Source: a virus
Taxonomy: Duplodnaviria; Heunggongvirae; Uroviricota; Caudoviricetes; Ackermannviridae
Strand: one strand, 5' to 3'
IMG/VR virus record: IMGVR_UViG_2974499353_000001
Span: 104,721-157,013 of that record
Length of the DNA: 52,293 bases
Position 1 is the first letter of the stretch; each line of letters begins with the position of its first letter. Below are positions 33,824 through 33,912 of the stretch, in pieces. Position numbers and translations under genes: made by a program. Under the pieces are notes generated by a model. That model saw nothing but the letters and a program-made list of their open reading frames with translations, had not been told where the DNA came from and made no database searches.

Positions 33824-33912
33824 TGCTTCATAGCTCGAGTGGTAGAGCGCAGGAAAGTTTCGAGAGAACAAGGTGCCTGAGGTCACTGGTTCGAATCCAG
33901 TTGAAGCAACCA
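33824..33912 (+). ncRNA. tRNA body with anticodon loop replaced by a 22-nt insert
   Basis: TGCTTCA/TGAAGCA-A-CCA, canonical D and T arms, CAGG/CCTG stem enclosing TTC-GAGA-GAA hairpin. Confidence 0.8.

Follow-up and report, generated by a model that had tools for sequence, protein, structure and literature searches.

A Kuttervirus tRNA-shaped RNA with a portable hairpin at the anticodon-arm position: a candidate carrier of a trans-acting cassette

The tRNA gene row of phage T4 specifies the non-decoding stable RNAs rnaC and rnaD, neither of which is, to our knowledge, known as a tRNA body with a swapped arm. In tmRNA, the tRNA-like domain (RF00023) retains the top half of a tRNA and carries another RNA part in place of the anticodon arm. 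The man-made tRNA scaffolds of Ponchon and Dardel have a hairpin-closed insert instead of the anticodon stem-loop and keep the acceptor, D, and T arms; E. coli processes and modifies these chimeras and shields them from decay (PMC3753655). YrlA RNAs (RF02553), including those of phages, join a tRNA mimic to a protein-binding module (PMC4201824). Closest to the present locus is an RNA gene of phage CBA120, described in one sentence as a "degenerate tRNA" whose specificity was not determined (Kutter et al. 2011, PMC3184105). That sentence is all that our literature search returned on a phage tRNA-like decoy of this kind, and no paper on the hairpin cassette or the cloverleaf carrier described below was retrieved.

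The window analyzed here is a 52,293-nt stretch (positions 104,721 to 157,013 of IMG/VR record IMGVR_UViG_2974499353_000001) that makes up the right third of a 157-kb ViI-like genome of the Ackermannviridae, a Kuttervirus going by the nearest records. CBA120 is 100% identical to it over 33815-33925, and its degenerate tRNA is the same element. PMC3184105 describes neither the arm swap nor the cassette and its spread. GenBank records label the element as tRNA-OTHER, tRNA-Pro, tRNA-Leu, or tRNA-Val or leave it unannotated. Its design matches that of the engineered scaffolds, with intact arms and a hairpin-closed insert for the anticodon stem-loop, although it is natural and its processing and stability are predicted by analogy. 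Compared with tmRNA, it has C3-G70 where the alanine identity pair G3-U70 would be, and it has no attached tag reading frame; neither Rfam nor ARAGORN -m called a tmRNA at the site (the latter run over 32001-35000). YrlA RNA ends in a Ro60-binding stem, whereas the window element ends in its acceptor stem. RF02553 gave no match at the site at E values of up to 10, and the YrlA/Ro60 motif GNCGAAN(0-1)G (PMC4201824) is absent from the element.

By sequence reading, the acceptor stem consists of seven Watson-Crick pairs (33824-33830 with 33902-33908), followed by U8 and A9, a D-stem (33833-33836 with 33845-33848), and G26 at 33849. The variable loop (33880-33884), the T-arm ACUGG-UUCGAAU-CCAGU (33885-33901), A73 (33909), and CCA (33910-33912) complete the body (Table 1). 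G18 and G19 in the D-arm and the UUCRANY loop of the T-arm are those of tRNAs (RF00005), as are the 7-bp acceptor stem, the discriminator base, and the CCA end. The initial annotation had called all of these parts canonical; each is present, but the description fails at D-loop position 14 (33837), which is G where tRNAs near-universally have A. Infernal scored the element well above the Rfam tRNA gathering score of 29 bits, with E values of 8e-9 (2.3-kb search) and 1.3e-10 (all 157 kb of the genome); ARAGORN at its default settings and the default Rfam filters skip it. Both the element and its cassette are single copy in that genome.

Table 1. Coordinates of the tRNA-shaped RNA, of neighboring features, and of RNAs found upstream of cloverleaf carriers (window positions unless a locus is named)
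Feature	Position	Strand	Remarks
tRNA-Ser(GCU)	33732..33820	+	3-nt spacer before element; marks conserved slot; ARAGORN, Rfam
Whole tRNA-shaped RNA gene	33824..33912	+	89 nt, CCA encoded; Rfam tRNA 48.7 bits
5' carrier half	33824..33848	+	Acceptor 5' strand 33824-33830, U8 A9, D-arm GCUC-GAGUGGUA-GAGC
Portable cassette, 30 nt	33850..33879	+	In place of 17-nt anticodon arm; boundaries by ECML-4 alignment
GNRA tetraloop	33862..33865	+	GAGA in window element
AAGGUG	33870..33875	+	Purine-rich internal-loop 3' strand, nearly invariant
3' carrier half	33880..33912	+	Variable loop AGGUC, T-arm, acceptor 3' strand, A73, CCA
Terminator-like hairpin and U-run	34134..34165	+	Would close RNA-gene row; consensus scan only
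tmRNA-tag-like RNAs	L057:1294-1441, L062:49-250, L065:99-297, L006:958-1061		Weak Rfam tmRNA matches

Where a decoding tRNA has a 5-bp anticodon stem and a 7-nt loop with U33, an anticodon, and a purine at position 37, the element has no such arm. Both its sequence and the Infernal alignment bear out the earlier description of a 4-bp CAGG/CCUG stem (33850-33853 with 33876-33879) that encloses 22 nt (33854-33875), among them UUC-GAGA-GAA (33859-33868); these 22 nt stand where the tRNA model has its central 9. From the outside inward, the cassette consists of the basal stem, the 5' loop AAA, G, a bulged or paired U, UUC-GAGA-GAA, C, and the 3' loop AAGGUG. The RNA is unable to decode, as had been proposed.

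The element is the fifth unit of an RNA gene row in the order Met-Asn-Tyr-Ser-X, and the Ser-X order recurs in ECML-4, in SW16-7, and in a 111-kb record. The next unit, delimited by the initial annotation at 33920-34075, lies 7 nt downstream. Along this row the RNA units are kept and the spacers between them vary; one contig from an RNA sequencing run joins 33299 to 33651, apparently coming from a relative that does not have the 351 nt between tRNA-Tyr and tRNA-Ser. A 294-nt low-depth contig from an RNA sequencing library covers 33651-33909, retains the cassette intact, and ends at the discriminator base. It is weakly compatible with an unspliced RNA, being an assembled contig in which DNA carry-over is possible. 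The four public runs considered, all of them assembled contigs, contained no spliced form, which weighs neither for nor against splicing. Elsewhere in the window, a second tRNA-like unit (30392-30484) contains CCCCGUUGGCAAGUC in its expanded arm, and a cargo of the lambdoid-type carrier introduced below (L114, L168) holds CCCCGUUGACAAGUC, which matches it at 15 of 16 bases; by our own estimate, the probability of such a match arising by chance is about 1e-3. The two sequences may represent a second cargo motif common to both carrier types.

Sister phages disclose the origin of the element. In ECML-4, the same slot after tRNA-Ser is occupied by a normal tRNA-Ile(GAU) (L002:1510-1582), and a gene annotated as tRNA-Ile lies at the matching place in PS5, GEC_vB_GOT, and SeF3a; this plain form was found in few phages, all of the ECML-4 type. 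The two alleles are identical in acceptor stem, D-stem, variable loop, T-arm, A73, and CCA. Apart from the D-loop, they differ only within tRNA positions 27-43, where ECML-4 has a 17-nt arm (5-bp stem UUCCC/GGGAG, loop CUGAUAA) and the window element has the non-decoding 30-nt cassette, with the consensus CAGG-ARA-GYUUC-GNRA-GAAC-AAGGUG-CCUG. Sequence comparison thus establishes a phage tRNA-Ile(GAU) as the ancestor of the element, the cassette having taken the place of the complete anticodon arm. Since the basal stem is foreign too, the event was an exact swap of the whole arm rather than the insertion into the anticodon loop that had been described. A tRNA-Ile is otherwise absent from the window genome. 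At position 14 the Ile allele retains A, but Kuttervirus alleles with the cassette show G (or C), and in some relatives (L026, L035) TCA replaces the encoded CCA. Both changes could reflect relaxed constraint on translation-related features.

Of the 131 phage records that contain the cassette, 102 share an identical 36-nt stretch around the insert; the surrounding 111 nt keep 95 to 99% identity (1 to 5% differences) in most records. The initial annotation had allowed for free decay of the element among relatives, which is not what these records display. Eleven cassette variants were recovered across all carriers. The middle base of the 5' loop is A, G, or once U; the pyrimidine preceding UUC varies; and one basal G-C pair is changed to G-U. 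The tetraloop is GAGA, GGAA, GGGA, or GAAA, always G-N-R-A with purines at N and R, and AAGGUG is unchanged in 10 of the 11 variants (AAGGUA in the other). Every change either preserves the fold or lies in a loop, so that pairing is never broken, and none of the 11 variants contains helix covariation or a double compensatory change. A scan in which the apical helix was free to vary yielded no new variant. Selection therefore appears to act on the sequence of the cassette as well as on its shape. The near-identity across phage groups could be due in part to recent horizontal spread and not to selection only. RNAalifold prefers a GYUU/AGGU pairing, and the single-sequence fold of the window element is UUC-GNRA-GAA. 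Two folds are thus possible by modeling, one with the UUC-GNRA-GAA hairpin and a bulge and one with GYUU paired to AGGU. The cassette matched no Rfam family.

On tRNA bodies, the cassette occurs in Kuttervirus, in Agtrevirus, in two N4-like genera, and in the 111-kb phage EP_H11. Its body in the N4-like Kaypoctavirus (VLCpiP4b) has the acceptor stem of the window element, and that in the N4-like Gamaleyavirus (pSb-1, Bas96, HK2) has a different one. EP_H11 carries it between tRNA-Gly and tRNA-Arg, also on a body whose acceptor stem differs from that in the window. Another 111-kb record, OR844942.1 (L179), is labeled "Enterococcus phage Efm 3-10" and UNVERIFIED_ORG; there the element follows Gln-Tyr-Ser and shares 111 nt with the window at 100% identity. 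Its Enterococcus host label is probably wrong. Among IMG/VR loci in which the common phage tRNA body bears an expanded anticodon arm, the cassette accounts for 20 of 26. Other expanded arms were seen in metagenomic viruses (L209, L250, L241, L252, L260). The arm of L209, from a giant-virus bin, contains CUGAUGAG as in a hammerhead core, and that of L250 resembles a Tyr loop followed by 12 extra nt. An AU-rich family of 34 to 37 nt occupies the same body in three metagenomic loci. E. coli K-12 has no copy of the cassette, and a scan of one representative genome per prokaryote species returned no match.

The same cassette also rides a four-arm cloverleaf that is not a tRNA, in HK620, HK633, Klebsiella phages, lambdoid and P22-like phages, and many enterobacterial prophages. 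Sequence matches thus place it in four or more phage groups and on carriers of two unrelated types. The cloverleaf, exemplified by HK620 (L057:1604-1693), was found in lambdoid phages, P1, Taipeivirus, and Klebsiella phages; the instances considered are L057, L061, L062, L063, L064, L065, and L066 plus about 65 distinct IMG/VR sequences. A closing stem of 6 to 9 bp (GUGGUG/CACCAC; GUGAUG/CAUCAC in P1) encloses a D-like hairpin (GCGC-AGGCUGAU-GCGC), one G, the cargo arm, a short linker, and a T-like hairpin (GCCGG-AGAUCAGCR-CCGG). The D-like and T-like loops contain perfectly complementary 6-base stretches, GCUGAU and AUCAGC, which would form a loop-loop "elbow"; loop variants exist, none of them compensatory. 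Junction spacing is tRNA-like, and canonical D and T loops and the CCA end are absent. The cloverleaf belongs to no Rfam family, and its D-like and T-like motifs do not occur in the window even with up to 3 mismatches allowed, so that the window element and the cloverleaf have only the cargo in common. In the sample, 42 distinct sequences of 31 to 177 nt occupy the cargo position. Sorted by eye, they comprise over a dozen insert types unrelated to one another, and the 30-nt cassette ranks second in frequency.

The cloverleaf RNA is present nearly whole in about 100 of 5,426 complete E. coli genomes. It falls in the interval from the late promoter pR'/qut to the terminator tQ in HK620 and is situated after tRNA-Asn and tRNA-Thr in P1 and after the repressor gene in mEp460, which are sites where phages keep tRNAs and accessory genes. 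A conserved AGUGCUCUUUCC (boxA-like UGCUCUUU) precedes the carrier (L057:1589-1600 and relatives) and can pair with copies of GGUAAGAGCA located upstream in HK620 or downstream in P1. This pairing may constitute an outer helix or a processing site. tmRNA-tag-like RNAs lie 130 to 320 nt upstream of the cloverleaf in HK620, Magnus, UPM 2146, and a prophage (Table 1); a crude motif search placed such an RNA upstream of 11 of the 65 distinct carriers.

Comparisons of the cassette with E. coli 16S, 23S, and 5S rRNA, tmRNA, and tRNA-Ile, in sense and antisense, gave nothing above shuffled controls, the best alignment having p = 0.06 among 20 tests. Likenesses of 8 to 10 nt to tmRNA (CAAGGUGC) and to the 16S 3' end (AACAAGGU) are at chance level. 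In E. coli K-12, complementary 11-mers occur at the same rate as those of a reversed control pattern. Mimicry of the sarcin-ricin loop was rejected because relatives do not keep GAGA, which is replaced by GGAA, GGGA, or GAAA. Known RNA motifs fared no better: in a kink-turn, the G-A pair would fit the first position, but at the second U faces A, G, or U; the 3' loop has no GGA, as a CsrA site would; and the AgvB-type anti-sRNAs, at 51 to 60 nt, are unrelated to the cassette.

Most likely, the element is neither a broken nor a spliced tRNA but a stable carrier RNA on which a small functional RNA module is displayed, and by analogy it most probably works like an engineered tRNA scaffold. The RNA would be cotranscribed with the neighboring tRNAs and excised by the host tRNA machinery, through RNase P at the 5' end and 3' trimming to the encoded CCA. 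The same machinery would spare it from degradation, as it does the engineered scaffolds in E. coli. Both steps are expected because the acceptor, D, and T arms are intact, and they would make the tRNA body the carrier. The cassette, held at the former anticodon-arm position, would then be the working part, predicted to bind in trans a factor that enteric bacteria, or infected cells, have in common, and the RNA would act as a sponge or decoy to the benefit of the phage. That the hairpin rather than the elbow does the work is suggested because the cassette also sits on a carrier that lacks CCA and canonical D and T loops. A division of labor, in which the carrier provides processing and stability and the cassette the activity, would be in keeping with one cassette recurring at one position on two unrelated L-shaped carriers. 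Given that the lambdoid carrier has no CCA end, tRNA-type processing may not extend to every carrier.

A protein is a more likely partner of the cassette than an RNA, because the purine-rich loop strands are invariant in sequence, because the GNRA loop is free to vary within its class, and because neither the host stable-RNA comparison nor the complement counts gave an RNA partner. Overall, we consider a stable non-decoding tRNA-shaped RNA with a trans-acting hairpin cassette as its working part the best explanation, with a probability of roughly 0.55. That the element is a functional non-decoding carrier plus cassette can be held with considerable confidence; that it is specifically a protein sponge is a tentative proposal.

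We rank the alternatives in the order pairing RNA, elbow decoy, cis-acting processing mark, spliced tRNA, and pseudogene. A base-pairing regulator, whose AAGGUG strand and/or GNRA loop would pair or dock with a host or phage RNA while the body stabilizes it, would accord with the loop strands being the most sequence-invariant parts and with the pairing small RNAs of phages and prophages known near the lambdoid pR' (PMC4104026), the region in which the lambdoid carrier lies. Its seed would span only 6 to 10 nt, however, its complementary sites in K-12 are no commoner than those of the reversed control, and its complementarity to stable RNAs does not exceed that of shuffles, which makes it unlikely. 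Somewhat less credible is a decoy in which the tRNA body itself soaks up a tRNA-binding enemy or machine, such as an anticodon nuclease or EF-Tu, and the hairpin just abolishes decoding. Phage tRNA clusters counter tRNA-cleaving defenses, and the acceptor stem, D-arm, T-arm, and CCA are retained; yet mere disruption of the anticodon would not call for 30 nt kept constant across 102 records, A14 has been lost, some relatives have TCA for CCA, and an anticodon nuclease requires the anticodon loop that the element does not have. The elbow decoy or mimic suggested by the initial annotation thus stands as to the inability to decode and falls as to the elbow being the function, since the cassette recurs on the carrier that has neither canonical D and T loops nor CCA.

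A purely cis-acting role, with the element as tRNA-like punctuation for RNase P cutting or folding of a long RNA-gene transcript and no role as a free RNA, would suit the tight row, in which 3 nt separate it from tRNA-Ser and 7 nt from the next unit and a terminator-like site closes the series. Punctuation requires the top half of a tRNA only, and it leaves the invariant cassette and its transfer to other carriers unexplained; we regard it as improbable. Very little speaks for a tRNA from which an intron, or nuclease-plus-ligase editing, removes an insert to give a decoding product. Some records annotate tRNA-Pro, tRNA-Leu, or tRNA-Val, and ARAGORN with introns allowed makes a poor "Pro(agg), 15-nt intron" call, but its product loop, CAAGGUG, has no U33, and removing 13 nt, which can be done in 18 ways, never leaves a 5-bp stem with U33 and purine 37. 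The 13 extra nt are far below the size of a group I intron, and the basal stem differs from that of the Ile allele, so that the whole arm is foreign; the RNA-library contig that retains the cassette weighs weakly in the same direction. An intron had been judged unlikely from the outset, and these excision and size results uphold that judgment. Rfam placed no intron family at the site, and inspection argues against a bulge-helix-bulge, the 3-nt and 6-nt loop strands facing each other with no 4-bp helix between them. Bacteria are not known to have the tRNA-splicing endonuclease. Equally far-fetched is a decaying pseudogene, the "degenerate tRNA" of the CBA120 description: G14 in place of A14 would be in keeping with it, but the disrupted part is the best conserved one, unrelated phages have a discrete cassette in common, and variation is confined to fold-neutral positions.

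Returning to the carrier with its cassette, a broader and speculative possibility is that enteric phages maintain an RNA "display" system, in which interchangeable cargoes on tRNA bodies or on the dedicated cloverleaf form a stock of sponges and decoys, for example, against host defense or control factors. As part of that same speculation, the 30-nt hairpin would be one of a dozen or more unrelated inserts, and a widely exchanged one.

The carrier-plus-cassette reading would correct annotation, because current records give tRNA-Pro, tRNA-Leu, tRNA-Val, tRNA-OTHER, or nothing. It is also directly testable, since sister phages whose slot holds the unmodified tRNA-Ile arm provide a natural control. 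Among the carriers are Kuttervirus phages employed in biocontrol of Salmonella and E. coli O157, as well as prophages of about 2 to 3% of complete E. coli genomes. Should this reading be correct, evolution has reached the design that RNA engineers use to stabilize small RNAs in E. coli, and the cassette would mark a conserved contact point between phages and enteric bacteria.
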